Part shown: piece by piece, positions 14,716 through 28,288 of the stretch
Layout: each line of letters opens with the position of its first letter
Numbering within the stretch: the stretch's first letter is position 1
NCBI GenBank assembly: GCA_964446515.1
Contig: CAYUPG010000002.1
Span: forward strand, 1 to 36,846
Origin: an uncultured Treponema sp.
GTDB lineage: Bacteria > Spirochaetota > Spirochaetia > Treponematales > Breznakiellaceae
Length of the DNA: 36,846 nucleotides
Direction of reading: 5' to 3'
Translations under genes and position numbers: made by a program
The notes under the pieces: generated by a model
The model's database searches: none
What the model saw: the letters and a program-made list of their open reading frames with translations, nothing else
Told to the model about the DNA's origin: nothing

Positions 14716-15417
14716 ATGTATCCCTTCAAGACACTGCGGGACGAAGCCTACGAGGCGAACATGGAGATACCCCGGCGGGGTCTGGCCATCTACACCTGGG
14801 GCAACGTCTCGGCCTTCGACCCTGACAAGGGGCTCTTCGCCATCAAGCCCTCGGGGGTCTCCTACGACGACCTGAAGCCCGAGGACCTGGTGGTGGTGGA
14901 CCTGGAGGGCAAGACGGCGGACGGGAAGCTCAACCCCTCCTCTGACACCAAGACCCACCTGGTCCTCTACCGCGCCTTTGCCGGCATACGGGGCATCACC
15001 CATACCCACTCGACCTACGCGGTGGCCTGGGCCCAGGCCCGCAGGGAAGTTCCCGTCTTCGGCACCACCCACGCGGACCACGGGGCCGAGACCATCCCCT
15101 GCACGGCGGTGATGAGCGCAGAGGCGGTGAAGCGGGACTACGAGACGGAGACGGGAAACCTGATCGTCGACACCTTCGCGGCCCGGGGCGCGGATCCCCT
15201 GCACATGCCCATGGTCCTGGTGGCGGGCCACGGCCCCTTCGCCTGGGGAGAGAGCGCCGCCAAATCGGTCTACCACGCCGCCGTTCTGGAGGAGGTCTGC
15301 CGCATGGCCCAGCTAACCCTGAGCATAGACCCCGCCGCGGCGCCCCTGCCCGAGCACATCGTGCGCAAGCACTGGGAGCGCAAGCACGGGGCCGGGGCGT
15401 ATTACGGGCAGAGGTAG
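14716..15417 (+). CDS. araD: L-ribulose-5-phosphate 4-epimerase
   Basis: 233 aa. GNVSAFD, IKPSGV and HTHSTYA (class II aldolase/AraD metal-binding His motif). AAGGAG RBS upstream. Confidence 0.92.
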   Translation: MYPFKTLRDEAYEANMEIPRRGLAIYTWGNVSAFDPDKGLFAIKPSGVSYDDLKPEDLVVVDLEGKTADGKLNPSSDTKTHLVLYRAFAGIRGITHTHSTYAVAWAQARREVPVFGTTHADHGAETIPCTAVMSAEAVKRDYETETGNLIVDTFAARGADPLHMPMVLVAGHGPFAWGESAAKSVYHAAVLEEVCRMAQLTLSIDPAAAPLPEHIVRKHWERKHGAGAYYGQR

Positions 15418-15694
15418 GGGGAGCACGCTGGACGCGTAGTGTCCGTCCGCGCAATAGACCTGCGCCGGGGTCCCGACAGGTGGGCGCCGGTCCTCGCTTG
15501 GTCCTCGCCCACCATCCTGCGGCTGGTGGGTTGCGGAATCGCTCGGACCGGCGCCCCCCTGCCACCCCGCATAGCGTTTCGACTGCGCGGACGGCGTATA
15601 TGCCCCAAGCGGGCGCCCCCGGCAAGGCGGCTCCCCCTGGCTGCGAACTCCTCGCCCCGCTCCGCGGGGCTGCGGGGTTCTCCGCCACCCCCAC
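15416..15694 (-). repeat. GC-rich intergenic repeat element, copy C (inverted orientation)
   Basis: The reverse complement contains GAGTGGGGGTGGCG (14/14 to copy B), CCAGGGGGAGCCGC (14/14) and GTGCTCCCCCT (11/11) in the same order. The GTGCTCCCCCT end overlaps the araD TAG stop. Confidence 0.55.
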
Positions 15695-15746
15695 TCGGGG
15701 AGGACAGCCGGCGGCGGCGGGGAAATGGAAGTCCTGTAGACCTTAT

Positions 15747-15761
15747 TGAAGACCAAAGCAA
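15747..15761 (+). repeat. Left copy of the island-flanking direct repeat TGAAGACCAAAGCAA
   Basis: 14/15 identical to 26591-26605 (TGAAGACCATAGCAA). It sits at the point where GC content drops. Confidence 0.45.
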
Positions 15762-16065
15762 ATTGGTAATAGTCCCCCCCAAAAAGGTTCTTCCGGGTTT
15801 TAGGGGATTAGTAGGGAAATTTGAAAAAGCAACGGCGACACGGAAAAGTTCAAGGTGACCAAACCAAAGAACTACCGGAGGCCGCCGTTGCAGTACCACT
15901 GTACCCCACTCGATGATACCTGGGAAGGCTTTCAGATCGCGGATTTCAAAAGAACGGAAACAAAACCCTCACCAACGTTACGTTTCTTTCTGAAGCCGGA
16001 AAACGACCATGCCCCCCACCGCCATGATCCGTCAAGCTACAAGGTCAACGCGGAGTAATCGACGG

Positions 16066-17562
16066 TTACAATGTCTCATATATTTCTTTGAAGCTCTCGA
16101 TTCCGGCCTCAAGGTTCTCGATGATCTCCTGGGCGAGCACATCCGGTTCGGGCAGATTGTCCAGGTCGGTGAGGCTCTTGTCCTTGATCCAGGTTATGTC
16201 GAGGCTCGTCTTGTCGCGGGCGAGGATCTCGTCGTAGCTGAACTTCCGCCAGCGGCCCTCGGGGTTCTTCTCGGCGTCCCAGGTTTGTTTGCGCTTGGCG
16301 ATGCTTCCCGGTTTATAGCATTGGATGAAGTCCGCGAGGTCATCGAAGGCGAGGGGATGCTGCTTGAGCGTGAAGTGCATGTTGGTCCGGAAATCGTAGA
16401 TCCAGACGTCCTTGGTCCACGGCGTCTTCGCGGCGGGATGGTTGTCGAAGAAGAGGACATTTGCCTTGACGCCCTGCTTGTAGAAGACGCCCGTCGGGAG
16501 CCGCAGTATCGTGTGGAGGTTCGTCGTCTCCATGAGTTTTTTACGAACAGTCTCGCCGACGCCCCCTTCGAAGAGGACGTTGTCGGGCAGGACCACGGCG
16601 GCGCGGCCATCGGACTTGAGCATCGTCCTGATGTGCTGGAGGAAGTTGAGCTGCTTGTTGCTCGTGGTGACCCAGAAATCCTGACGATTGTAGGTCAGGT
16701 CCTCGGCCTCCTGCTCCCCCTCCTCGTTGGTGAAGGTCATGCTGCTCTTCTTGCCGAAGGGGGGATTCGCGAGCACGTAGTCGACGCGGAGTCCCGTATC
16801 GGCGACGAGGGAATCGGTGCTCGATATGAAGGTCTCGCTCTCGAAGTCGCCGATGTTGTGGAGGAAGCAGTTCATGAGCGCGAGGCGCCTCGTGGAGGCG
16901 ACGATCTCGTTCCCGAAGAAGGTCTTGTTCTTGAGGAATTCCTTATCGTCCCGGGAGAGGGTGTAATTTTCGGGATTTGCCAGGAAGTCGTAGGCTGCCA
17001 GGAAGAAGCCGCCCGTGCCGCAGGCGGGATCTGCTATCGTCTTCTGGGGCTCGGGCCGGACGCAGGCCACCATGGCGCGGATGAGGGCGCGCGGGGTGAA
17101 GTACTGTCCGGCGCCGCTCTTCGTGTCCTCGGCGTTCTTCTCAAGGAGCCCCTCGTAGATCCGTCCTTTGATGTCCGCACCCATCGTGCTCCACGCTTCC
17201 TTGTCGATCATATCGATGAGCTTATAGAGCTTGGCGGGGTCTTGGATCTTGTTCTGGCTCTTCAGGTATATCTGCCCGAGGACGCCTTTCTGCTTGGAGA
17301 GCTCGCGCAACAGCTCGGTGTAGTGATTTTCGAGAGCCGCCCCCTTCTTGTCGGTTAGGCTCTCCCAATCGTAGCCCACCGGGATCGGCAGCTTGCGGCT
17401 GTAGGGCGGCTTGGAGAACTCGTCGGCGAGCTTGAGGAAGAGCAGGAAGGTTATCTGCTCCAGGTAATCCCCGTAGCCCACGCCGTCGTCGCGGAGGGTA
17501 TTGCAGAAGGCCCAAACCTTGCTGATGATTCCGGAGCCGGAATCGATGTTGCCGTTATTCAT
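16066..17562 (-). CDS. hsdM: Type I restriction-modification system, DNA methyltransferase subunit
   Basis: 498 aa. N-terminal HsdM-type helical domain, AdoMet motif DPACGTGGF and catalytic NPPFG (LANPPFGKKS). The ATG at 17560-17562 lies inside the last codons of yoeB. Confidence 0.92.
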   Translation of the reverse strand: MNNGNIDSGSGIISKVWAFCNTLRDDGVGYGDYLEQITFLLFLKLADEFSKPPYSRKLPIPVGYDWESLTDKKGAALENHYTELLRELSKQKGVLGQIYLKSQNKIQDPAKLYKLIDMIDKEAWSTMGADIKGRIYEGLLEKNAEDTKSGAGQYFTPRALIRAMVACVRPEPQKTIADPACGTGGFFLAAYDFLANPENYTLSRDDKEFLKNKTFFGNEIVASTRRLALMNCFLHNIGDFESETFISSTDSLVADTGLRVDYVLANPPFGKKSSMTFTNEEGEQEAEDLTYNRQDFWVTTSNKQLNFLQHIRTMLKSDGRAAVVLPDNVLFEGGVGETVRKKLMETTNLHTILRLPTGVFYKQGVKANVLFFDNHPAAKTPWTKDVWIYDFRTNMHFTLKQHPLAFDDLADFIQCYKPGSIAKRKQTWDAEKNPEGRWRKFSYDEILARDKTSLDITWIKDKSLTDLDNLPEPDVLAQEIIENLEAGIESFKEIYETL

Positions 17563-17821
17563 AATGCGTCCACATCCTCAATACGCGTACGATTTTTTCA
17601 AACTCGAATACTTGGTACACCAGCCGATGCTGGATGTTGATGCGCCGCGAATAGGCTCCGGCGAGGTCGCCCAGGAGCTTCTCAAACGGCGGCGGATTTC
17701 TGAAGGGGTCCTCGGCCAGGATGGCGATGAGGACCTTCGCCTTCTCCTTAAGACCGGAAGCCTCGATCTTCTTGGCGTCTTTCACGGCCTGACGCGCGTA
17801 CACGACCTGCCACATCACCAA
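17555..17821 (-). CDS. yoeB: Txe/YoeB-family toxin (mRNA interferase)
   Basis: 88 aa. SRRINIQHRLVYQV and the C-terminal THYE match the YoeB family. Confidence 0.85.
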   Translation of the reverse strand: MVMWQVVYARQAVKDAKKIEASGLKEKAKVLIAILAEDPFRNPPPFEKLLGDLAGAYSRRINIQHRLVYQVFEFEKIVRVLRMWTHYE

Positions 17822-18057
17822 TCAAGCTTTGTAGCGCTCTTGGAGAGTGGCTCCTTCATGCCCTCCCGAATCGACTCCCGCATCCCCGGAATGGATAACA
17901 AGTAGAGGGTTTCCTGGATGGCGCGCCAATCGTCCTCGGCGACCAGGACGGCGTTACCCCGCTTGCCCGTGATCGTCACGGGCTCATGCGCTTCGTTGGC
18001 TTCATCGATGAGGCGGTAGAGGTTCGCGCGCGCGTCGCTAGCGGATAACATGGGCAT
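17815..18057 (-). CDS. yefM: Phd/YefM-family antitoxin
   Basis: MPMLSASDARANLYRLIDEA...VTITGKRGNAVLV matches Phd/YefM. GGAGG lies 5 nt before the ATG at 18057 (an alternative ATG is at 18069). 7-nt overlap with yoeB. Confidence 0.85.
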   Translation of the reverse strand: MPMLSASDARANLYRLIDEANEAHEPVTITGKRGNAVLVAEDDWRAIQETLYLLSIPGMRESIREGMKEPLSKSATKLDW

Positions 18058-18074
18058 GGCTGCCTCCATTAATA

Positions 18075-18103
18075 AACGTACGTTATTGCGTACGAACTGT
18101 CAA
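18075..18103 (-). promoter_or_regulatory. Candidate yefM-yoeB promoter with two CGTACG core palindromes
   Basis: On the minus strand: TTGACA (18098-18103), 17 nt, TACGTT (18075-18080). The CGTACG cores at 18077-18082 (within AACGTACGTT) and 18089-18094 are 12 bp centre to centre and occupy the spacer and -10. Confidence 0.4.
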
Positions 18104-18170
18104 GCAGGATATGTTACTCTCAGTTATCAAGGATTCCTTGACAGTTGCCGCCCTTTACAATTCCTTCGCT

Positions 18171-18401
18171 TTAAAGCCGTTGCTGATATGCCGTCTGAAC
18201 TACCGAGGATTGCTCGGTCGTTGCCGCTTCATCGAGCTCACCTTCGGCGAAGATGTTCTTGAGATGCAAACCGATAGTATCGCTATCCTTCTCAAACAGG
18301 TCCGCCATCTTCTTTTGAGAGAGCCAGACCGTATCCTCTTCAAAGCGGACCTCGATCTGGGTGAGATTATCAGGGGTTTGATACATAACAATCTCGCTCA
18401 T
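18171..18401 (-). pseudogene. Truncated RhuM-family gene (N-terminal ~70 aa only)
   Basis: MSEIVMYQTPDNLTQIEVRFEEDTVWLSQKKMADLFEKD...NIFAEGELDE matches the N-terminus of RhuM-family proteins, which I recall as about 300 aa or more. The ORF stops after 76 aa. Confidence 0.65.
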
Positions 18402-18418
18402 GACCCCCCCTTTCTATG

Positions 18419-18482
18419 TTGCGTCTCACATAATACCACAATTGAGACGCAAATCGTAATATGTCTCACTCATGAGACGCAA
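18419..18482. promoter_or_regulatory. Repeated 10-mer TTGCGTCTCA/TGAGACGCAA around an extended -10, upstream of the rhuM remnant
   Basis: TTGCGTCTCA at 18419-18428 is inverted relative to TGAGACGCAA at 18443-18452. A second direct TGAGACGCAA lies at 18473-18482, 30 bp away. On the minus strand, TGGTATTAT sits between the inner pair. Confidence 0.45.
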
Positions 18483-18524
18483 TCGATGGAAGCGAGCGGA
18501 AGCCAGTTGGATACGAAGGGCGAT

Positions 18525-19700
18525 TTACCCATCAGCGTGTCGCTTCCTTTCGCGGTCTACCACGTTTTTCAAGCCGCTCGTTTCGGCGTTCGCCGCGGGA
18601 GGAGCCTTCTTATACGAGGGCTGAAGCATATTCTTCTCCCGCTCGGTCATGTTATCACATACGCGTGCCAGGCTTATGAGTATCGATTTGGGATCGGCTT
18701 CAAGATCGATTCCTATGAGACGGAGCTCAAAATCGCCGAGATCTATTCGATGATCGAAGGATTCGTCCTTCATCGCGTAGACGAGGCTGGCCGACCACCT
18801 TCGCTTCAGTAGGTCGCGACGCCGCAGGGCGCTTAAGTAAGACGCTATTTGGTAGAGATGCGCGGAGCGGATCTTTTCATCCCCACTAGGATGTTTGGCA
18901 AAGGGATATTCGTAATACTTCGCATCGATAACCATGCAGCGGTAGTGACCGAAGATGGTGACGTCCGTCTCCATGATCGGTTCCAGTGGGCTCCTCGCGC
19001 TCTTAATGGGGTTCCAATGAAAGCGATTTCGCGCGACTCGGAAATCCCGGCCTAAAGTTTCTTTCAGGCCTCTCCTGACGAAGGCCTCGAAAGCGCGATT
19101 CATGCTCCTCCTATCGAAGGGATCCTCGACCTCCACATCGCCTTCTCGCGCCCTGGCTGAGTTCAGGACCAACCGAGCCCAGAAGAGGGCGCGGCGGTAA
19201 CCTGGGTTGTTTCGGTGGAGGCGGGCTCTTCTTAGGGCCGAGCGGCCTTCTACGATGGTTGGAAGCTCCGTTCCCGGAAATGCACGTCCGAGCGCCCGCG
19301 CTCTCTCGCGCGTTTCCGGGCATAGCTCGCTCAGGCCTTCGGCCAGGAGGAGCGCGGTCTTTATAGCGCTATTCTGCGGGCATTCCGGCGATAATCGCGC
19401 CGCAACGGATACCGCCTTCATGCCCATACCGAAGTCGCGTCCGAGCGTCCGGCCCATGTCTATCCGTCCCGCGATAGAAGGGCCGAAGCTTGATTCCTCT
19501 ACGTAAACGCGATCGGCCCCCCGCCTCAGGATCGTGGCTGCGGCGTCCGATAGGGCGCGGAACAGAAATTCGCATGGATTCGTTTCGCCGTACTCTCCCG
19601 AGAAGAGCTCGTCCTTCGGCGTATACAAGTTACCCGCATAAGTGAGGAGGAAGTAGAGCGCCTGCGGCGACAATCCTAAAGGATCAGCTCGTCCCGCCAT
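18525..19700 (-). CDS. mcrC: McrC-like endonuclease subunit of a McrBC-type modification-dependent restriction system
   Basis: 391 aa. PD-(D/E)xK-like MVIDAKYYEY with downstream LYQIASYL, as in the McrC family. 25-nt overlap with the upstream mcrB-like gene. Confidence 0.8.
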   Translation of the reverse strand: MAGRADPLGLSPQALYFLLTYAGNLYTPKDELFSGEYGETNPCEFLFRALSDAAATILRRGADRVYVEESSFGPSIAGRIDMGRTLGRDFGMGMKAVSVAARLSPECPQNSAIKTALLLAEGLSELCPETRERARALGRAFPGTELPTIVEGRSALRRARLHRNNPGYRRALFWARLVLNSARAREGDVEVEDPFDRRSMNRAFEAFVRRGLKETLGRDFRVARNRFHWNPIKSARSPLEPIMETDVTIFGHYRCMVIDAKYYEYPFAKHPSGDEKIRSAHLYQIASYLSALRRRDLLKRRWSASLVYAMKDESFDHRIDLGDFELRLIGIDLEADPKSILISLARVCDNMTEREKNMLQPSYKKAPPAANAETSGLKNVVDRERKRHADG

Positions 19701-21949
19701 CGTTTCACTTTATCCGGCTGATCGAACCAGTATTCCTGGAGAGTAGGAATAATCTGGCTCTCGACGATGGATTCGAACCATTCGTCGTCGAGTTTTGTAT
19801 CGTCGTCGATCGCGGAGAAGTAACTATGGCCGATCTTGTAGCCGTGGCCGAGGTTTCGGTCCCGTGCGATCTCGTCATTCAATCTGCTCATCGACTCGAC
19901 GATGCGCTTAAGCAGCTCTTGATCCATACCGACGCCGAGGTCGTCTCCCATGTAATTGGAAAAACCGTCCTTTCCGAAGGCCGGTTCAAGCTGGACGAAG
20001 GCGAAGCGCCTGCGAAGCGCGTAATCTACCACCGCAAGGGATCTGTCGGCGCTGTTCATCGTCCCGATGAGATAGAGATTCGGGGGGATATAGAAAGGCG
20101 GTTCGCCCGGCTTCTGGATCGAAAGTTTCAGCGCGCATTCGGGTCTACGTTTATCTTTTTCCAGGAGGGAAAGCATCTCCCCGAATATGCGCGAAGGATC
20201 GCCTCGGTTAATCTCGTCGATGAAGAGGATGTAGGGTCTTCCTTCATCTTTCCTGGCCGCCTCGCAGAATTCGAGGAAAGGGCCATCCCTCAACTCAAAG
20301 CCGCCCTTTCCCGGTCTCCAGCCGCGAACGAATTCCTCGTACGAGTAGGACTGGTGGAACTGGACCGCCATGAGCCTCGGATCCTCGCCGGAACACCCTA
20401 GCTTGATCCAGGCAAGCCGCAAGGCAAGCCAGCTCTTACCCGTCCCCGGAGGGCCGGAAAGGATGAGGTTCATGCGGTTATCCAGGGAATCAAGCGCTCC
20501 CTGAATCTCCGCGACATCGAGGAAAGCCCCTTCAGCGATGAGATCGTCGATAGCGTAGGGCCGCTCGCTCGTTTTTGCGGAGTATCCTTTGCCTCCGGAA
20601 TCACGCCCCTCTTCTAGGGGTCCGGTTTCGCCCAATAAATTGAAGACGTAGGCAAGCCAGGTCTTATATCGGCTCATATCGGTGAGGGTCTTCGTCGTGA
20701 TCCTTTGAGTCTCGGAAAGCCGCCACTCGCCGGTCTTGAGCCACTCGACATTGCGAACATGATGATACTCGGGGAAGGCCGGATCGTAGCGGCATCCGGA
20801 CTGTATCCGGCCGAGCCCAAGGACCAGGGTGCGCCCCTGTTTCGCCAGGACGAAGTCGCCTTCCTTCATCTCGGAGGCGAACTGATAGGCCGCCAAGGCA
20901 TCCATCGTCGGCTTCGCGCCCCCGCCCCTTGAAGTCTCAAGCTGGCTGAATATCTCTTCCTTGGAGAGAGTCGCGAGCTCCGCTCCGAAGTCCTCATACC
21001 CGATGGCTATAGCGCTCTGCGATTTGAAGTCTTCCCAGAGATGGGCTTCCGATCCCGCGCCTATCGCCCAAATGCGCGCTCCGCGATACCGCTCGGGGAT
21101 GCCGGCAGCCGCATAGGCGGATTGAGCTTCCTCCCCGTCTCCATCATCCGAACCGTCTCCTCTCGGCGGCAGCCATTGCGGGCGTATTTCGGGCGTCTCG
21201 TAATAGTCGAAGCCCTTTCCGTACTGAGACTCCAGTCGGGAACGAATCGCCAATAGTTGCCGGTCGGTGGACACTCTGTCTTTTACGTCGTACGGCTTGT
21301 CTCCTTCTCCGAAGCGTTCAAAAATCCATTTTTTGTGACTGCGGCTCGCGATCCTCTCGAAGAGCTCGGGAAAAAGGAGATGGAGAAGGGCATGGTAAAA
21401 CTGCCGGCCATGCGATGGATCGCGGGCATCCAGAAAGGCGGCTAAAGCCCACGCATCGGCCAGCAGGGCACTTCGCTCTTTTGGGGCAAGCGCCTTGAGT
21501 TCGCGAACCGTACTGATGGAATATGCATACTCCATCCAGAAATGATTCTGAATTGCCGGCCCCATCGATCCTATTCCTTCTAGGAGCGTGCTTTCGAGCA
21601 TCGGGCAGTCAACCGCCAACTCGCTTCCGGTCCAACTCCAAATCCTCCTGATCTTGAGGATCTTCGTAGCAGGGTTCACATTGCTCGCGAAGAGTAGAAT
21701 GGGCCAGACGAATTCGGCGGCAAGCCGCTTCGCGGGTGCCGAAGCGACCGACAACTGACGCTCAAGCTTCGTCATGAAATCCTGCTTGGAGAGGTCCGGG
21801 CGCCGTACATAGCATCTATCAAGCTCTTCAAGGTTTTCCAGGGTCCACAACGCCTCAGCGCTGAAGAGAGATCCGTCCCCGACCAGACATTTTTCCGCCC
21901 AAGTCTTTGCGGCGGTATAGATCCCTTGCGACGGCAGATAGACAGCCAT
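19676..21949 (-). CDS. mcrB: McrB-like AAA+ GTPase with a ~480-aa unassigned N-terminal region
   Basis: Walker A LILSGPPGTGKSW, Walker B ILFIDEINRGDPSRIFGE and the McrB signature LIGTMNSADRSLAVVDYALRRRF. GGAGG RBS 5-6 nt before the ATG. Confidence 0.85.
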   Translation of the reverse strand: MAVYLPSQGIYTAAKTWAEKCLVGDGSLFSAEALWTLENLEELDRCYVRRPDLSKQDFMTKLERQLSVASAPAKRLAAEFVWPILLFASNVNPATKILKIRRIWSWTGSELAVDCPMLESTLLEGIGSMGPAIQNHFWMEYAYSISTVRELKALAPKERSALLADAWALAAFLDARDPSHGRQFYHALLHLLFPELFERIASRSHKKWIFERFGEGDKPYDVKDRVSTDRQLLAIRSRLESQYGKGFDYYETPEIRPQWLPPRGDGSDDGDGEEAQSAYAAAGIPERYRGARIWAIGAGSEAHLWEDFKSQSAIAIGYEDFGAELATLSKEEIFSQLETSRGGGAKPTMDALAAYQFASEMKEGDFVLAKQGRTLVLGLGRIQSGCRYDPAFPEYHHVRNVEWLKTGEWRLSETQRITTKTLTDMSRYKTWLAYVFNLLGETGPLEEGRDSGGKGYSAKTSERPYAIDDLIAEGAFLDVAEIQGALDSLDNRMNLILSGPPGTGKSWLALRLAWIKLGCSGEDPRLMAVQFHQSYSYEEFVRGWRPGKGGFELRDGPFLEFCEAARKDEGRPYILFIDEINRGDPSRIFGEMLSLLEKDKRRPECALKLSIQKPGEPPFYIPPNLYLIGTMNSADRSLAVVDYALRRRFAFVQLEPAFGKDGFSNYMGDDLGVGMDQELLKRIVESMSRLNDEIARDRNLGHGYKIGHSYFSAIDDDTKLDDEWFESIVESQIIPTLQEYWFDQPDKVKRWRDELIL

Positions 21950-21981
21950 ATCGACCTCCCCATTCAGTTAGTATTATCGAT

Positions 21982-23391
21982 TTAGTCCGGATGCTTCCTC
22001 GGCCGTCCCCGCTTCTTGGGCGCGTCCGTCTGCGTTTTCTGAGCCGCCGCTTTCTCCGGTGCCTGCGCGCGTGGCTTTCTTCCCCTTTTTCCAGAAACGG
22101 AAATCTTCGCCGTTCCGGCTCCTTCCTTCTCCCGCTCGGCCCGAATCCGATCCAGCAGAACGCTCGCCGGCTCGTCGCTCGGATCCTGCGGCACGAGCTT
22201 TCCCTCAAACGCTTTCTTGAGGATGCTCTGGCGGAGGGACTCGGCTTTATCGAGACTTATTTTGATTTCTTCATCTCGACTACTGGGGAATGGTATCCGA
22301 CATTCTTTTAAATCGATGGGGGACAAATTGGGCTGGAGCGTTTCGGTAAACTTTGATCTGATATAAGTTTTGAAAGATTCAGTATTACAATAATAAAAGA
22401 GATACTTACTTTCACATTGTATTTCCTTGAAACAAGCGACTCGTTGATTCAACAATCCTATTTGTCCTTTAGGGAAGTAACATACTTTTGTGGTATTATT
22501 AGTAATTGGCCGCGTGAGAGCTATCAGTAAATCCCCGCTATTTACTACAAAGTTCTCATATTTTGAAACGAATTCTTCAGGTAAATACTGTTGATCCTTA
22601 ATATCAAATTTTGAGTACCCAATATTTGCAATCTTTATAACGGGAATACCTCGAGTAGTGAAGTCAGAACTTTTAAAGGCACATCCTGACAGGAGATCAC
22701 AGACGTCATATATATATCGATATCTCCACCCCTCCGGCAGCTCCCCATCCTTCACGTTCTTGTTTGTGAGCTTCCCTTCGAAGGCTTGCTTGAGCACAGT
22801 CTGGCGATAGACCTTAAGTTGCTTCTGGGCAGTCCTGAGACTCTCAATGCCTTTGTCGAGGATAGAGAAGAGTTCCTCGATCTTGACGACTATGCGCTCC
22901 TGCTCGGCGAGAGGGGGGAGGGGAATGGTGCATGTCTCTATGTATTTCGTCGGAACACGTCGTTGGCCGACTGCACCGGTCATATTTGATTTGGCCTCTT
23001 GTCTGAACCGAGATTGTGATAAGTAATAAAATAGATATCGATTTAGTAACGCTTGATTACACCTAAATACATGGAATTCGGTGGAGCCGAATCCAACACC
23101 ATTTTTCAATGAGTGGACTACCGCGATCTTACCGTTCTCCATACACGGCGATATTTTCGCAAATATCACATCTCCATCTATCATGGAGGTAAATCCTTTT
23201 TTTACCTCCATATATTTTCTTGATTCATCCAAATGAATCTTGCCTGTCTCTTCTTCAACTAACCTCATCGGTAAGAATGTGACTACAGAATCCTCATTAT
23301 ATGATTCGCATGGTAGGCCTGGATTGAGTTCGGACAATTCGGCAATTCGTGCCAAGGACCATGTTTGTGGAGTAATAGCAATGGAGCTCAT
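21982..23391 (-). CDS. hsdS: Type I restriction-modification system, specificity subunit
   Basis: 469 aa with two variable target-recognition regions separated by conserved repeats (VLKQAFEGKL and ILKKAFEGKL). Basic C-terminal tail with KRGRKPR and KRGRPRK. Starts 2 nt after the hsdR stop. Confidence 0.9.
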   Translation of the reverse strand: MSSIAITPQTWSLARIAELSELNPGLPCESYNEDSVVTFLPMRLVEEETGKIHLDESRKYMEVKKGFTSMIDGDVIFAKISPCMENGKIAVVHSLKNGVGFGSTEFHVFRCNQALLNRYLFYYLSQSRFRQEAKSNMTGAVGQRRVPTKYIETCTIPLPPLAEQERIVVKIEELFSILDKGIESLRTAQKQLKVYRQTVLKQAFEGKLTNKNVKDGELPEGWRYRYIYDVCDLLSGCAFKSSDFTTRGIPVIKIANIGYSKFDIKDQQYLPEEFVSKYENFVVNSGDLLIALTRPITNNTTKVCYFPKGQIGLLNQRVACFKEIQCESKYLFYYCNTESFKTYIRSKFTETLQPNLSPIDLKECRIPFPSSRDEEIKISLDKAESLRQSILKKAFEGKLVPQDPSDEPASVLLDRIRAEREKEGAGTAKISVSGKRGRKPRAQAPEKAAAQKTQTDAPKKRGRPRKHPD

Positions 23392-23393
23392 CC

Positions 23394-26171
23394 CTACACC
23401 GCCAGTTTCTCGTTCATCTCATCCATGATCCTGTTCATCCCGTCGCCGAAGAGTTGCCACATCTTGCCGCGGCCGCCGCGTGCGTCGAAGGGCGTGTAGT
23501 CCAGGTCCTCCACGTTGACGTGCACCGAGCTCGCGATATGGTCGCGGATCATGCGGAGCCACGCCATCTGTTCCTCGCTGAACTTTTCGCCCGATCCCGC
23601 GTGACGCGAGAAGATCCAGTCCTGGAAGTTTTTCGCGACCGTACTCTCCCAGGAGCGGAGCTCTTCATCGATCCCGGCCACTCGGCGCAGGAGCGCCACG
23701 AGCGCGATGAGTTCTTTGCCGGGTTTTCCCTGGACCTTTTCAAGATCTTCGTACGCCTGCCAGACCCGCAGCGGCGCCAAGCTCGGCTTGTCGGCCACGA
23801 GCTTTTCAGAGAGTTCCTTTATCATGTCGTAGGTGAGTTCCCTTCGGCGATAGGGCTGGTCGTAGAATAATCGCAGGGCGACGATCTCGTCGCGATGCGA
23901 AACCACCCAGCTGTTGAACTCAGCTACGATGCTTTGCGACCGCGCGTGCCGTGCGTCGTCCCCACCCGCGTATGTTACTTCGTCTATGTTGAGCGAGTCG
24001 ATGGTCTGTTCGTGGGCTCGCCTGACGTTGTCGATATACTCGTTGAAATCGCCGGTGAAGGGACGGGCCGCTTGATTCCGTATGGCAGTGATCCGCTTGC
24101 CGACTTCGGCTTCGACCGCTTCTGGACCTTTTCCGGGGAATTCCGACTGAACCGCCGCGCGGATATCATCTTCCGCGTCCGGGTTGAAGGTCCCCAAGAG
24201 CGCGTGGGCGATCGACGCGAGGCTTGAGCCGCCTGTTCGGCGCTCGACCTCGGTCTTCTCCTTTTCCGACAGCTGCCGATCGAGTCGAGCGAGTCTACTA
24301 GCCAAGGTCGTGAAGAGCTCCTCGTCCCGCGCCCCGGCCGCGATGGCGCCTAGGAGGTCTTTGAGCGGCACGCCGGGCTTCTTGTCCAAGGGGCGGCTAT
24401 CAGTCTTGAGGCTCTTGGTGACGCCTATCGCGTCGACGATGACGAAGTGGTCTTTGGTCAGCTTTGCGCTCGGCGATACCTTCTTGAGATCGTCATAGTC
24501 GATGACCCGCGTCCCACGGCCCTTCATCTGCTCGAAGTAGCCCCGGCTCTTCACGTCGCGCATGAAGAGGAGACATTCCAGGGGCTTCACGTCGGTTCCC
24601 GTGGCGATCATATCCACCGTCACCGCGATGCGCGGATGGTACTCGTTGCGGAACGACGCGAGGATCGATTTGGGATCGTCCTCGGCCTTATAGGTGATCT
24701 TCTTGCAGAAGTTGGATCCTTCGTCGAATTCTTCGCGTATGGCCGCGATGATGTCGTCGGCGTGGCTGTCGGTTTTTGCGAAGACAAGGGTCTTGGGTAC
24801 TTCGAAGACCCCGTCCTCGTCATATCGATCCGGGAAGAGTTCGCTCAGGTGATCCTTGAATGTCCGCACGATCGTCCGGATTTGGCTCGGGTTTATGACA
24901 TCCTTATCAAGTTCTTTCGAGGAATAGTCCTCGTCCTCGTCGAGGAGTTCCATGCGCTTGCGCCGGGAGAGGCGTTCCCGTCGCTCGATGTAGTTCCCCT
25001 TCCAGAGAGTTCCGCCGCCTTTCGAAATCTTCGTCTCGATGAGGAAGACGTCGTAGCCGACGTTGACCCCATCGGCTATGGCCATCTCATGGGTGTATTC
25101 GGACACCACGTTCTCGTGGAAGTACCCATAAGTTCTCTTGTCGGGCGTCGCGGTGAGACCGACCTGAAAGACATCGAAGTAGTCGAGCACCTGCTTCCAA
25201 AGGTTGTAGATGCTCCGGTGGCATTCGTCTATTACGATGAAGTCGAAGAACTCTATAGGGACCTTTTCGCTGTACTCTACCGGGGGCACTTCCTTGGGCA
25301 GCCAGTTATGCTCGGCAGGATTCTCCTCCTCGGACGAGTCGTCCAGATCCTGCCCCTTGAGGATGGAATAGAGCCGCTGGATAGTGCTGATGTACACATG
25401 GTTGTCCTCGGGAATGTACGAGGACGAGAGTCTATGGACGCCATAGAGCGACGAGAAGCTGCGGTTGTCGTCGTTCGGCTGGTATGCCATGAACTCCTGT
25501 TCAGCCTGCTCGCCGAGGTTCTTCGTATCGACGAGAAAGAGGATACGCTTCGCGTTCGTATACTTCAGGAGACGGTAGACGAAGGTGATGGCCGTGAAGG
25601 TCTTCCCCGATCCCGTGGCCATTTGAATGAGGGCCCGCGGCTTATTGGCCTTGAAGGATACCTCAAGCTTCGTGATCGCGTTTATCTGGCAGTCGCGCAA
25701 GCCTTCCGTCGGGAGCGTTGGAAGATCAGCGAAAGATGTACGGAGGGCTTTGCCTTTCTTGAGCCACCCTTGGATCGTCTCGGGACGATGGAAGGTGAAG
25801 ACCTCTCGGAAACGGGGTTTAGGGTCGCGGAAGTCGATGAAGCGCGTGATGGCGCCTGTGGAGAGGTAGACGAAGGGAAGCTGCTGATTGTCCAGATAGC
25901 GGAGCCGGGCACTCGCGTAGCCTTCCGCTTGATCCTCATGGACCGAAAGGCGTTCTCCCTCTTCTTCCCGCTTTGCCTCCACGATCCCGATAGGCTTCAG
26001 GTCCACAAAAAGGGCATAATCAGCCGGACCGATGGAGGTAGAATACTCCCGAACAGCGACCCCGAGTCCCGCGTAGAGGTTGATTTGAGCCTTGTCCTGT
26101 ACGAGCCATCCGCAGGCTCGTAGCTGGCTGTCTATCTCGTCGCGGGCTATCTGCTCAGGGTTTTGGTTCAT
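23394..26171 (-). CDS. hsdR: Type I restriction enzyme, endonuclease/translocase subunit
   Basis: 925 aa. N-terminal nuclease motif (PADYALF...GIVEAKRE), SF2 helicase motifs (MATGSGKTFT, VIDECHRS, GLTATP) and a long helical C-terminus. Confidence 0.92.
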   Translation of the reverse strand: MNQNPEQIARDEIDSQLRACGWLVQDKAQINLYAGLGVAVREYSTSIGPADYALFVDLKPIGIVEAKREEEGERLSVHEDQAEGYASARLRYLDNQQLPFVYLSTGAITRFIDFRDPKPRFREVFTFHRPETIQGWLKKGKALRTSFADLPTLPTEGLRDCQINAITKLEVSFKANKPRALIQMATGSGKTFTAITFVYRLLKYTNAKRILFLVDTKNLGEQAEQEFMAYQPNDDNRSFSSLYGVHRLSSSYIPEDNHVYISTIQRLYSILKGQDLDDSSEEENPAEHNWLPKEVPPVEYSEKVPIEFFDFIVIDECHRSIYNLWKQVLDYFDVFQVGLTATPDKRTYGYFHENVVSEYTHEMAIADGVNVGYDVFLIETKISKGGGTLWKGNYIERRERLSRRKRMELLDEDEDYSSKELDKDVINPSQIRTIVRTFKDHLSELFPDRYDEDGVFEVPKTLVFAKTDSHADDIIAAIREEFDEGSNFCKKITYKAEDDPKSILASFRNEYHPRIAVTVDMIATGTDVKPLECLLFMRDVKSRGYFEQMKGRGTRVIDYDDLKKVSPSAKLTKDHFVIVDAIGVTKSLKTDSRPLDKKPGVPLKDLLGAIAAGARDEELFTTLASRLARLDRQLSEKEKTEVERRTGGSSLASIAHALLGTFNPDAEDDIRAAVQSEFPGKGPEAVEAEVGKRITAIRNQAARPFTGDFNEYIDNVRRAHEQTIDSLNIDEVTYAGGDDARHARSQSIVAEFNSWVVSHRDEIVALRLFYDQPYRRRELTYDMIKELSEKLVADKPSLAPLRVWQAYEDLEKVQGKPGKELIALVALLRRVAGIDEELRSWESTVAKNFQDWIFSRHAGSGEKFSEEQMAWLRMIRDHIASSVHVNVEDLDYTPFDARGGRGKMWQLFGDGMNRIMDEMNEKLAV

Positions 26172-26201
26172 TTGGTTATCCTTCCGGTCTTAATCTATCT
26201 T

Positions 26202-26235
26202 AGTATAACATAAACATTTGTTATTCACGACTCAA
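26202..26235 (-). promoter_or_regulatory. Candidate hsdR promoter
   Basis: On the minus strand: TTGAGT (26230-26235), 17 nt, TATGTT, which overlaps an extended -10-like TGTTATACT (26202-26210). GGAAGG RBS lies before the ATG. Confidence 0.3.
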
Positions 26236-26242
26236 CAATCGA

Positions 26243-26593
26243 ATGGAGGAGTACCGCGGCATCCTCATCTGCACGATCAATATCGTCAAGAACTTGGATG
26301 CCGCCGTCCTCAGACGTTTCCATCTTAAGGCGGAATTCGGCGTCCTATCGGATGGAAACGCAGAATTGCTGTTCCATCGCTTCTTTCCGAAGGTTGATCT
26401 AGGCGACGAACATCGACGCCGATTCATCGCCGCGGGTCCATACGTTCCCGGCGACTTCGCCGCAGTGAACGGCGTCGCGTCGATTCTGCCGGAGGCGGAA
26501 CTGTCGGTAGAGTACTTTCTCAGCACATTCAAGGAAGAGGCTAAGCACCGCAAAACGCGAGCGGCGGCTATCGGCTTTCATATCGGGGACTGA
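26243..26593 (+). pseudogene. 3' fragment of an AAA+ ATPase gene (Walker motifs missing)
   Basis: Begins at ...ILICTINIVKNLDAAVLRRF, the sensor/arginine-finger region of classic AAA modules. There is no upstream P-loop and the frame opens only at 26204. Island-like GC. Confidence 0.55.
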
Positions 26594-26605
26594 AGACCAT
26601 AGCAA
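26591..26605 (+). repeat. Right copy of the island-flanking direct repeat TGAAGACCATAGCAA
   Basis: 14/15 identical to 15747-15761. GC content rises again immediately downstream. Confidence 0.45.
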
Positions 26606-26626
26606 CGCAATAAATCGGGTCCTAGA

Positions 26627-27129
26627 TTGGTTGAACTGTCAAAGCTGACGCCTATCCTGGTTTTGACCGGTGCGCGGCAGTCCGGCAAGACGACCTTGCT
26701 GCGCTCGATTTTTCCCGAGCACCGCTACGTCGGTCTGGACCTTCCCAGCGTTGCGGAGCAGGCGGAGCGGAGTCCCGATCAGTTCCTCGCCGCGAAGCCG
26801 CCGCCGCTGCTCATCGATGAGGTGCAGTATGCCCCCGGCCTATTCCGGCACCTGAAGATCAGAGCGGTCGGGAGATAGACGTACTGCTGGAGCGCGGAGG
26901 GGTCCTGGATCTTCTGGAGATCAAATGGTGCGAAAACCCCGACGATGCCGATGCGGCTCCGCTTGCGGCCGTGGCAAAGGCCCTGTCGGTCCATAGCCCG
27001 AGCTCCAGGCCGGGGACTTCCTATATACTCTGCCGCACCCCCTTTCCCTATTCGCGTCCCGACGGCGTGCGGATCATTTCGCCGGCGGAGCTGCCGGAGT
27101 TGTTTTCGCCCCGGCGGCCCGCGCCCTAG
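26627..27129 (+). pseudogene. Internally deleted and frameshifted ATPase gene (AAA/DUF4143-type)
   Basis: N-terminal piece with the P-loop LTGARQSGKTTLL and Walker B LLIDEVQ ends at TAG 26876-26878. From 26872, in another frame, a C-terminal piece EIDVLLERGGVLDLLEIKW...DGVRIISPAEL runs to TAG 27127-27129. The middle of the gene is missing. Confidence 0.6.
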
Positions 27130-27202
27130 CGCGCGTCCGGCATAGCGGGATCGCCGCAGGGGGTGTATAGTATCGGTACGGCAAGGAGCGGCGAGGACGG
27201 GC

Positions 27203-28288
27203 ATGAGCGACGGGCTGTACACCTTCACCACCGGCGCCTTCGGCGCGGCCTTCCTGATCGTCGGCGCGGGCTTCCTCTTTGAGCCGGGGAAGTCGCGCGT
27301 CCGCAGGGCCTTCGGCTCCCTGTTCCTGGCCCTGGGCTCCGCATATACCCTGAGCCGCTTCAGCATGTCCCTTACCTTGCCGGTTGCGGCCGATACCCTG
27401 CTTGTGCTGGCGATAGTTTTCGCCATGAGCCAATCCCTCTTCGAGATAAGCCTGTACCTCTTCGGGGACGAGGCGGTGCGGGGTTCCCGGCGGCGGGTAT
27501 ACCTGATCGGGGCGTCCTGGTCGCTCTTCCTCTGGCTGCTTCCCGGCTTGGATGTTCTCTTCCGCCTGCAGGCGATAGGTTCCAGCGTGGAAGACGGCAG
27601 GGCCCTGGGTCCCTTCCATTCGTTCGCCGCCGCCGCTCTCTACCTCTGGCCCCTCGCCATAGCGGTGATATCCTTCAAGGCAGGCCGTTGGCACCCCGCA
27701 GACCTTCCGCGGGAGCCCGGGGCCGCCTGGACCTTTCTGGGAGCCCTGGCCGCCGTCGTCCTCGTTCTGATCATCATCGGCCTTTCCCTGGCCGCCTCCT
27801 GGACCGACGGCTATAGAGCCGGGCATACGGCGCTCCAGCTCATGATGCTTTCTTGGTTCTTTTACTTCCAGGCCAATCCCGACGCGTTCAAGCGGGCCCG
27901 CGGGGAGATCGAGCGGAGGCACGCCCAGCGGGAGGCCTTGACGGCCGAGGAGGCGGAGGAGATCGCCGGGCGGCTGCGGAAGGCGGCGGAGTCGGAGTCG
28001 ATCCACACCGTGCCGGATCTCACCCTGGGCATCCTGGCCGGAAAGATCGGCGTTCCCGCCTACAAGCTTTCGGCCTATTTCAACGGATCCCTCGGCATGC
28101 GTTTTCCGGAATGGCTCAACGCCGCCAGGATAGAGCAGGTGCGGAGAAGCCTGCTCGAGAAGCCGGAGCGCAGCATACTGGACCTCTCCCTGGAGGCCGG
28201 CTACATCTCCAAGGGGGTCTTCAATCACCAGTTCCGGCGCCTGGTCGGGATGAGCCCGCGGGAGTACCGGGCGAAGAATTTGTCCTAG
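27203..28288 (+). CDS. Membrane-anchored AraC-family transcriptional regulator
   Basis: N-terminal ~220 aa contain several hydrophobic helices. The C-terminal AraC HTH includes ILDLSLEAGYISKGVFNHQFRRLVGMSPREYR. GAGGA RBS upstream. Confidence 0.8.
   Translation: MSDGLYTFTTGAFGAAFLIVGAGFLFEPGKSRVRRAFGSLFLALGSAYTLSRFSMSLTLPVAADTLLVLAIVFAMSQSLFEISLYLFGDEAVRGSRRRVYLIGASWSLFLWLLPGLDVLFRLQAIGSSVEDGRALGPFHSFAAAALYLWPLAIAVISFKAGRWHPADLPREPGAAWTFLGALAAVVLVLIIIGLSLAASWTDGYRAGHTALQLMMLSWFFYFQANPDAFKRARGEIERRHAQREALTAEEAEEIAGRLRKAAESESIHTVPDLTLGILAGKIGVPAYKLSAYFNGSLGMRFPEWLNAARIEQVRRSLLEKPERSILDLSLEAGYISKGVFNHQFRRLVGMSPREYRAKNLS

Follow-up and report, generated by a model that had tools for sequence, protein, structure and literature searches.

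A type I restriction-modification operon of an uncultured Treponema with McrBC and toxin-antitoxin cargo between hsdS and hsdM

Introduction

Defence genes embedded in type I restriction-modification (R-M) loci have already been published, and the locus described here keeps to that pattern. It lies in a stretch of 36,846 nucleotides from an uncultured Treponema sp. (GenBank assembly GCA_964446515.1, contig CAYUPG010000002.1), hereafter called the window, which is one whole contig (C2) of a 59%-complete metagenome-assembled genome (MAG) in 352 contigs. In the window, an operon with the type I genes in the order hsdR-hsdS-hsdM (R-S-M) holds, between hsdS and hsdM (the S-M slot), a McrBC-type restriction system, a rhuM stub, and the toxin-antitoxin (TA) pair yefM-yoeB. 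An original prediction, made from the DNA letters alone, had described this arrangement, called its gene order unusual, and asked how the stoichiometry of M and S is maintained and whether the two restriction systems function as a unit.

Several described systems come close to it. In VPI-2 of Vibrio cholerae, the type IV restriction system TgvAB lies within a type I operon, its defence is independent of HsdR activity, and both TgvAB and the type I system proved active, each complementing the other (PMC11411939). As in the window, a co-directional, modification-dependent restriction system is thus found inside a type I operon; unlike it, TgvAB is GmrSD-like and placed between hsdR and hsdS, whereas the window has McrBC between hsdS and hsdM. 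Between hsdS and hsdM, the type I hsd loci of Campylobacter jejuni contain open reading frames (ORFs) named mlo, and between hsdR and hsdS others named rlo (Miller 2005 as cited in PMC5183652). As far as the accessible part of that source goes, these loci share with the window the order hsdR-hsdS-hsdM and the variable ORFs at both junctions, but they belong to another hsd family and another host, and neither McrBC nor yefM-yoeB is named there as mlo cargo. The RptR-RMS-DarTG2 island of enteropathogenic Escherichia coli has a TA system in its type I operon, in a slot that was called a potential recombination hotspot (PMC12255303); a TA system thus sits inside the type I operon in both cases, DarTG2 there and YefM-YoeB here.

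Embedding has also been used systematically, in a 'guilt-by-embedding' catalogue of the genes found in type I R-M, BREX, DISARM, and Hma loci (Payne et al., bioRxiv 10.1101/2024.01.29.577857). Among the corresponding PADLOC PDC models, the rhuM stub of the window matches PDC-S05/S23, and the predicted reader region of its McrB matches PDC-S02; the accessible part of the catalogue does not mention McrBC by name. Bell et al. report that McrBC systems of the K-12 branch are often found in the same orientation as type I R-M (PMC11090510). The immigration control region of E. coli K-12 has mcrBC beside hsdRMS, whereas in the window mcrBC is inside the hsd operon, and the N-terminal reader of the K-12 McrB is DUF3578/ADAM, whereas the McrB of the window has DUF8426 and a putative EVE/YTH-like fold. 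Finally, EcoprrI carries PrrC as an accessory gene inside its type I locus (review PMC12707154), an arrangement comparable to that of the window, but searches of the window proteins with Pfam, NCBIfam, and PADLOC found no homology to PrrC. In the literature we searched on embedded type I cargo, the combination of McrBC plus yefM-yoeB in the S-M slot was not found named.

Results and discussion

Gene order and the S-M slot across the family

Eight ORFs lie head to tail in the window, all on the minus strand, from 26171 to 16066, in the order hsdR, hsdS, mcrB-like, mcrC, rhuM stub, yefM, yoeB, and hsdM (ORF calling and profile searches, with E-values far past the chance level). The gene identities, co-directionality, and tight packing claimed in the original prediction were confirmed by the profile searches and by reading the sequence, as was the presence of a type IV system and a TA pair between hsdS and hsdM, which are 4419 nt apart. 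The explanation that we regard as probable is that of an intact type I operon of a mobile R-S-M family, whose S-M slot holds three independently acquired and independently working modules: the McrBC type IV system, the decayed rhuM stub, and the yefM-yoeB TA pair. In this family, the S-M junction is a routine slot for swappable defence cargo.

The evidence for this comes primarily from relatives of the operon. A scan of one genome per species gave at least 591 relatives of HsdM, and we fetched the best 80 loci (HsdM 73-88% identical). These best 80 span at least 12 phylum-level groups, including Spirochaetota, Bacteroidota, Planctomycetota, Desulfobacterota, Armatimonadota, Cyanobacteria, Bacillota, and Acidobacteriota, as well as Gammaproteobacteria, Ignavibacteria, KSB1, Riflebacteria, and others. 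In all the loci where the three genes are visible (57/57), hsdR, hsdS, and hsdM are co-directional and in that order, so that the gene order previously taken as unusual is the rule among the relatives. In 65 loci, the spacing between the stop codon of hsdS and the ATG of hsdM could be measured exactly. It is at most 65 nt in 14 of them, many with overlaps of 4 or 8 nt, which suggests that in the ancestral state hsdS was translationally coupled to hsdM. In cargo-free loci, the hsdS stop abuts or overlaps the start of hsdM. The spacing is 149-584 nt in 10 loci and at least 730 nt in the other 41 (63%), exceeding 3 kb in 11. The separation of hsdS and hsdM, which had been considered an oddity, is therefore the majority state, and the 4419 nt of the window would rank sixth largest. 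The R-S junction is used as well (more than 1.5 kb in 11 of the 57 loci). At the DNA level, the window matches its relatives in hsdR and hsdM, and the homology breaks off precisely at the hsdM ATG, which fits an exchange of cassettes between conserved flanks.

The content of the slot is very diverse. In the 38 loci with a slot of at least 1 kb, we called 107 ORFs, of which 96 are co-directional with the operon, and scanned the 95 ORFs with a length of 80 aa or more with Pfam and PADLOC. SLFN_AlbA_2 was found in 10 (HATPase_c_4 in 9), DUF4062 in 7, AAA_21/AbiL in 5, IS200-type transposases in 4, RhuM/Fic, SIR2, and HNH in 3 each, and McrBC in 2; PD-(D/E)xK families, GmrSD_N, AbiEii, and others complete the set. 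Hence, the locus in the window has what is observed for embedded cargo: both flanks come from one system, the cargo is co-directional, and the slot is variable across homologous loci. Nesting of this kind is common and already catalogued, given these 41 of 65 loci and the published precedents, an outcome for which the original prediction had allowed. Its statement that a McrBC system nested between S and M is less familiar stands in that McrBC is a minority cargo (2 of the 65 relatives) and falls in that nesting in this slot is itself routine.

The closest relative comes from another Treponema MAG (L005, 2638-11488, plus strand), with an HsdM 88% and an HsdR 76% identical to those of the window. 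Its genes are in the order hsdR, hsdS, RhuM-Fic, a 711-aa McrB-like gene, mcrC, AAA_14/DUF4143, and hsdM; the cargo is of the same kinds as in the window, but its lineages and its gene order differ.

Junctions and predicted expression of the operon

The genes of the block are tightly joined. Sequence reading gives a gap of 2 nt between hsdR and hsdS (hsdR TAG, 'gg', hsdS ATG), a spacer of 32 nt that separates hsdS from mcrB and contains a ribosome-binding site (RBS), GGGAGG, and overlaps of 25 nt for mcrB/mcrC, 7 nt for yefM/yoeB, and 8 nt for yoeB/hsdM (cat tATGaaTAA), where the last Tyr codon of yoeB overlaps the hsdM ATG. The original prediction had given the first three of these figures, and all were reproduced. 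Of the 37 loci whose cargo is co-directional, 23 have the first cargo gene starting at most 15 nt from the hsdS stop, and 21 have the last cargo gene ending within 15 nt of the hsdM ATG or overlapping it, 12 of them with an exact overlap of 4 nt. The geometry of the window (32 nt at one end and an 8-nt overlap at the other) is therefore typical.

This arrangement suggests how modules that work separately could still share transcription and transfer. Transcription may start upstream of hsdR, in an AT-rich leader (26172..26240, minus strand) that reads as the putative main promoter of the operon, with a TATACT -10-like hexamer at 26207-26202 and a GGAAGGA RBS at 26185-26179, and it may read through the cargo; we propose read-through because no convincing terminator was seen. 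Two leaders within the cargo would add transcription close to hsdM. One is the putative promoter/operator-like leader of the rhuM stub (18402..18524, minus strand), where the inverted repeats GCGTCTCA/TGAGACGC flank a TGGTATTAT extended -10-like box, and where there is a G7 RBS. The other, and above all, would be an autoregulated yefM-yoeB promoter, for which the candidate is a promoter/operator-like region (18070..18110, minus strand) with TTGACA at 18103-18098 and two CGTACG palindromes at 18094-18089 and 18082-18077, 12 bp apart from centre to centre. The E. coli yefM-yoeB operator has two palindromes with a TGTACA core and likewise a 12-bp spacing. The candidate -10 of the yefM leader is weak (TACGTT, 3/6).

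Internal promoters of this kind would supply yefM, yoeB, and hsdM, and not hsdR or hsdS, placing M in excess over R and S. Type I enzymes have the composition R2M2S1; M must be present at twice the amount of S and should not become limiting. Given this requirement, internal promoters for hsdM would be a simple answer to the question of how the stoichiometry of M and S is maintained. Translation of hsdM may, in addition, be coupled to that of yoeB through the 8-nt overlap, as it may be to that of the last cargo gene in many relatives.

The same junctions can be given a stronger meaning, in which selection would have shaped the S-M junction into a 'coupling dock'. Cargo would be inserted with its first gene abutting the hsdS stop and its last gene overlapping the hsdM ATG, and the output of the methylase would depend on transcription and translation through the cargo. 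We consider this rather unlikely. If it were true, the retention and the expression of cargo would be tied to self-protection, the operon would be a carrier of defence genes across phyla, and the TA pair of the window, placed at the dock, would supply an autoregulated promoter to hsdM.

A related idea concerns the TA pair itself. The yefM antitoxin gene (18069-17815, minus strand) matches PhdYeFM_antitox (PF02604; 1.9e-20, 72.8 bits for a cut-off of 29.8); its ORF starts at 18069, and a likelier start is the ATG at 18057, 5 nt after GGAGG. The yoeB toxin gene (17821-17555, minus strand) encodes 88 aa that match TIGR02116 (3.4e-25, 88.1 bits for a cut-off of 51.8) and YoeB_toxin and retain the C-terminal His-Tyr. 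With the antitoxin upstream of and overlapping the toxin and both past the curated cut-offs, YefM-YoeB is a type II TA system; a look-up of the exact YoeB sequence returned nothing on record. The pair might be kept because an autoregulated promoter derepressed under stress and the coupling of yoeB to hsdM set the levels of HsdM, holding M in excess or raising it under stress. This would supplement the explanation based on independent modules and not replace it, and we judge it unlikely. What suggests it is the overlap through the last Tyr codon of yoeB, the TTGACA and the two CGTACG palindromes upstream of yefM, and a second case that is unrelated to YefM-YoeB: in a Spirochaetota MAG (L070, 9324-10013, plus strand), a TA-like pair of DUF6364 and PIN_3 genes closes an S-M cargo block of 6.4 kb, with an overlap of 4 nt between the PIN gene and the hsdM ATG. 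However, among approximately 38 cargo-bearing loci, only this one and the window have a TA pair at that position, and many cargo genes other than TA are also tight to hsdM, which makes the overlap a property of the slot and not of the TA. The weakness of the -10 also speaks against such control, and the hairpin upstream of yefM could equally terminate transcription. The coupling of a TA pair to hsdM, seen twice with unrelated TA families, gives a simple idea of how M may be kept in excess when R and S are upstream.

The McrBC module and its relation to the type I system

The mcrB-like gene (21949-19676, minus strand) encodes a GTPase of 757 aa (AAA_5, 6.9e-24; NCBIfam McrB, 3e-74 over residues 464-756) made up of a DUF8426 N-domain that is helical, a beta domain with a putative EVE/YTH-like fold (residues ~290-430), and an AAA+ GTPase domain (464-756). 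The latter is closest to that of the E. coli K-12 McrB (PDB 6hz4/6ut6, E ~1e-75), and its motifs are intact: GPPGTGKS (Walker A), DEINR (Walker B), and MNSADR (NxxD signature). The protein misses the NCBIfam McrB equivalog cut-off (250 vs 637 bits) because its N-terminus differs. The local Pfam search found no match in this N-terminal region; the precomputed Pfam labels of the lineage are DUF8426, McrB_lid, and AAA_5. We modelled residues 1-480 with AlphaFold from an alignment of 16 sequences (mean pLDDT 82.4) and obtained a helical domain (~1-260) and a beta-rich domain (~290-430). The top Foldseek matches of the latter in the PDB are YTHDF2, YTHDC1, and the EVE proteins 2gbs and 1zce, with probabilities of 0.82-1.0, and PADLOC PDC-S02 matches residues 292-406. 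The N-terminus is thus a likely candidate for a PUA-like reader of modified bases. As a variant of McrB, with DUF8426 and a putative EVE/YTH-like reader on a GTPase of the K-12 type, the protein is of modest value.

The nuclease subunit is encoded by mcrC (19700-18525, minus strand; 391 aa), which matches Pfam McrBC (2.8e-19, 69.7 bits for a cut-off of 23.9) and NCBIfam McrC (1.7e-42) and has the motif TD...DAK of an intact PD-(D/E)xK site. Its residues 1-347 are 51% identical to a stand-alone relative (L088). The remaining part includes an extension of 43 aa (residues 349-391; 18525-18653, minus strand), ..CDNMTEREKNMLQPSYKK..RKRHADG, that is absent from the closest relatives (348 and 365 aa) and has an EREKN motif. 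The C-terminus of McrC resembles the conserved tail of HsdS (FE.kLv..D...P.S.L....EREKN; E 0.003-0.05). That it could be the leftover end of an hsdS between cargo blocks was considered and found unsupported: stand-alone relatives of McrC have the FELRL...P..I part as a native feature, and the DNA match between the tail and hsdS 3' ends (26.5 bits) is inside the range of shuffled sequences (95th percentile 25.6, maximum 27.4).

If these proteins act as their families do, HsdR2M2S1 would cut DNA lacking the N6-methyladenine (m6A) mark at the site specified by HsdS, McrBC would cut DNA with modified bases and so cover the phages that evade the type I system by modification, and YefM-YoeB would stabilise the island, abort infection, or both. 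Each module most likely functions alone. Complementary action of this kind, by independent mechanisms, was shown for TgvAB in V. cholerae (PMC11411939).

The genomic contexts of McrBC are informative in this respect. A relative of the DUF8426-McrB of the window with 60% identity follows the hsdR of a type I locus with the order M-S-SIR2-R, another with 55% identity follows the hsdS of an M-Fic-S locus, and, of two further relatives, one is beside an Mrr-type gene and the other beside a PemK TA pair. This lineage is therefore often found with type I systems, but neither always nor at a fixed position. The McrBC pairs present in the S-M slot of two relatives (L005 and L062) belong to other lineages: their McrB are only 34-40% identical to that of the window, with the similarity confined to the GTPase domain, which points to independent acquisitions of McrBC. 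In other loci, a related McrBC lies divergently beyond the operon (L058), and a McrB-like gene lies downstream of hsdM (L077).

These data bear on whether McrBC and the type I system form an integrated two-tier unit, functionally coupled and requiring the nesting to function, as the original prediction had asked. Such a unit could take the form of obligatory ordered co-expression. It could also resemble the case of PrrC, an anticodon nuclease that the type I enzyme physically binds and sets free once it is itself inhibited; inhibition of the type I complex would then likewise free McrBC or YoeB. The co-directional, tightly packed genes with no clear terminator seen, the presence of this McrB lineage beside or inside type I loci in three of the five known contexts, and the 10-100-fold better protection by the TgvAB cluster in its native five-gene context (PMC11411939) would all agree with coupling. 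Yet, more than 20 unrelated cargo families use the same slot, McrBC occupies it in just 2 of the 65 relatives and with different lineages, close relatives of the window McrBC occur in contexts without type I (Mrr, PemK), and a related one is divergent and outside the operon. Moreover, the embedded system of V. cholerae works independently of HsdR activity (PMC11411939), and Pfam, NCBIfam, and PADLOC gave no PrrC-like match. We therefore find a two-tier unit very doubtful, and retain the explanation based on independent modules in a common slot.

Integrity of the type I genes and of the cargo

The three type I genes look intact. HsdR (26171-23394, minus strand; 925 aa) matches HSDR_N, ResIII (3.9e-39), and EcoEI_R_C (8.4e-38), i.e., it has the PD..ExK nuclease, the SF2 ATP-dependent motor, and the EcoEI_R_C tail of a type I restriction subunit. 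The motifs PADY...VEAK of the N-terminal nuclease, GSGKT, and DECH are all present, and full-length identity to the HsdR of related loci is 56-76%. It fails the type IB equivalog test, with 203.6 bits for a cut-off of 550 (NF046051, restrict_EcoAI) and 379 for a cut-off of 729 (NF008521). Since both cut-offs are missed and only the tail is common, we call it EcoEI_R_C-bearing and not type IB. HsdM (17562-16066, minus strand; 498 aa) matches HsdM_N and N6_Mtase (1.5e-68), as well as PADLOC MTase_I (1e-194), and is an m6A (gamma-class N6-adenine) methyltransferase, with PACGTGG at residue 179 and NPPF at residue 266. HsdS (23391-21982, minus strand; 469 aa) matches Methylase_S twice and PADLOC Specificity_I over its full length (5e-108); it has two target-recognition domains (TRDs) and a long basic C-terminal tail. 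When aligned with relatives from the best 80 loci, HsdM retains 220 of 222 and HsdR 279 of 284 of the columns conserved at 97% or more (98-99%), the changes in HsdR being conservative. The original prediction had reserved judgement on lesions in the hsd genes that it could not see; none was found, and with the motifs and the conserved columns kept, that worry is not borne out at the sequence level, except for rhuM.

Two features of HsdS are worth recording beside this. TRD1 (22700-23370, minus strand; residues 8-215) shares 53-59% identity with TRDs from three relatives (L010, L027, and L066); in the first two of these the match falls on the second TRD position, and the remaining HsdS is ~30-40% identical, a sign of TRD shuffling within the hsd family. 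The C-terminal tail (21982-22090, minus strand) has two AT-hook-like motifs, GKRGRKPRA and KKRGRPRKH. The HsdS of relatives have basic tails too, placed after a conserved motif ...FEGKLVPQDPNDEPASVLL..EREKN.

The rhuM stub (18401-18171, minus strand; 76 aa) is the exception to the integrity of the block. It matches PADLOC PDC-S05/S23 (down to 7e-30) and aligns at 45% identity with residues 1-69 of RhuM-Fic (330 aa) from the closest relative, and the homology ends within the conserved motif FRxVQxEG...YNLD. We conclude that it is most likely the relic of a RhuM/Fic-type gene. A real small protein was also envisaged, as the stub matches the 82-87-aa PADLOC PDC-S05 models end to end, and was judged less likely given the break inside the RhuM motif.

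One could extend this decay to the whole island, which would then be a graveyard of defence genes with restriction and modification both lost. Besides the truncation of rhuM, a fragment of an AAA_14 gene at 26627-26878 and the lack of a recombinase or a tRNA go in this direction, but the other seven ORFs are full length with their catalytic motifs, HsdM and HsdR retain 98-99% of the family-conserved columns, the motifs of McrB and McrC are intact, and YoeB and YefM pass the curated cut-offs, which makes an inactive island highly improbable. An assembly artefact, in which the hsdR-hsdS of one genome was misjoined to the cargo and hsdM of another, is almost certainly not the explanation: the MAG is fragmented (352 contigs) and the exact YoeB protein has no other record, but the architecture agrees with 57 independent loci, every junction is an in-frame and tight gene boundary, high-GC host DNA flanks the block on both sides in the same contig, and the N-terminal part of McrB occurs with 99% identity on two other contigs.

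Reach of the explanation

A number of points weigh against the explanation that we prefer. First, the source genome is only a 59%-complete MAG. Second, we infer both the read-through and the internal promoters from sequence; a simple sigma-70 consensus scan called zero promoters on the minus strand of the island, the leader of hsdR included, where the promoter rules of the host may differ, and the same scan listed the palindrome of the yefM leader as terminator-like. Third, the EVE/YTH-like matches of McrB have weak E-values (0.013-0.5) and target-normalised TM of 0.41-0.54. Fourth, three of the five DUF8426-McrB loci of known context, the window included, are beside or inside type I loci, and this may reflect a functional tie.

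As a single locus, the operon of the window is of little weight: it is a further example of an embedding that has already been used for gene discovery. The R-S-M family as a whole is of modest value: it is very mobile and has cargo in about two-thirds of its S-M slots, usually with translationally tight junctions on both sides, which makes it a convenient system for studying the exchange and the expression of cargo.

Surroundings of the island and the host genome

The block has a GC content of 0.555, compared with 0.662 outside, and thus forms a lower-GC island within one contig, with araA/araD on one side and an AraC-type regulator on the other. A scan of the window found no tRNA or recombinase at the island, an Rfam scan of 15000-27500 with E-values up to 0.1 gave zero matches, and a Pfam search of an antisense ORF (18111-18812) and of the small flanking ORFs matched only the AAA_14 fragment. 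This fragment (26627-26878, plus strand; 83 aa; Pfam 3.8e-13, positions 3-83 of the 129 of the profile) is divergent from hsdR and lies within a lower-GC stretch that extends to ~27200. It is a second decayed gene of the defence island, with no detectable similarity to the intact AAA_14/DUF4143 gene in the slot of the closest relative.

We considered whether a 17-nt direct repeat (15745-15761 and 26589-26605, 15/17 identical) brackets the island. Since a third copy (20639-20655, 14/17) lies inside mcrB and the lower-GC DNA goes on to ~27200, the match is probably due to chance, and the true ends of the island are not set by it. The reconstruction of an empty insertion site from relatives also failed. 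The araD gene is kept at 68-82% DNA identity in 29 of the 41 genomes searched (its own included), and in the four closest araD regions it is the only shared gene, the AraC-type neighbour and the hsd genes being absent from them.

The same MAG encodes, elsewhere, at least one intact-looking C5 cytosine DNA methyltransferase (L103, G000:C135:3154-4155, plus strand; PF00145, 3.2e-54). If the McrB reader binds 5-methylcytosine, it must avoid the sequence context that is methylated in its own host.

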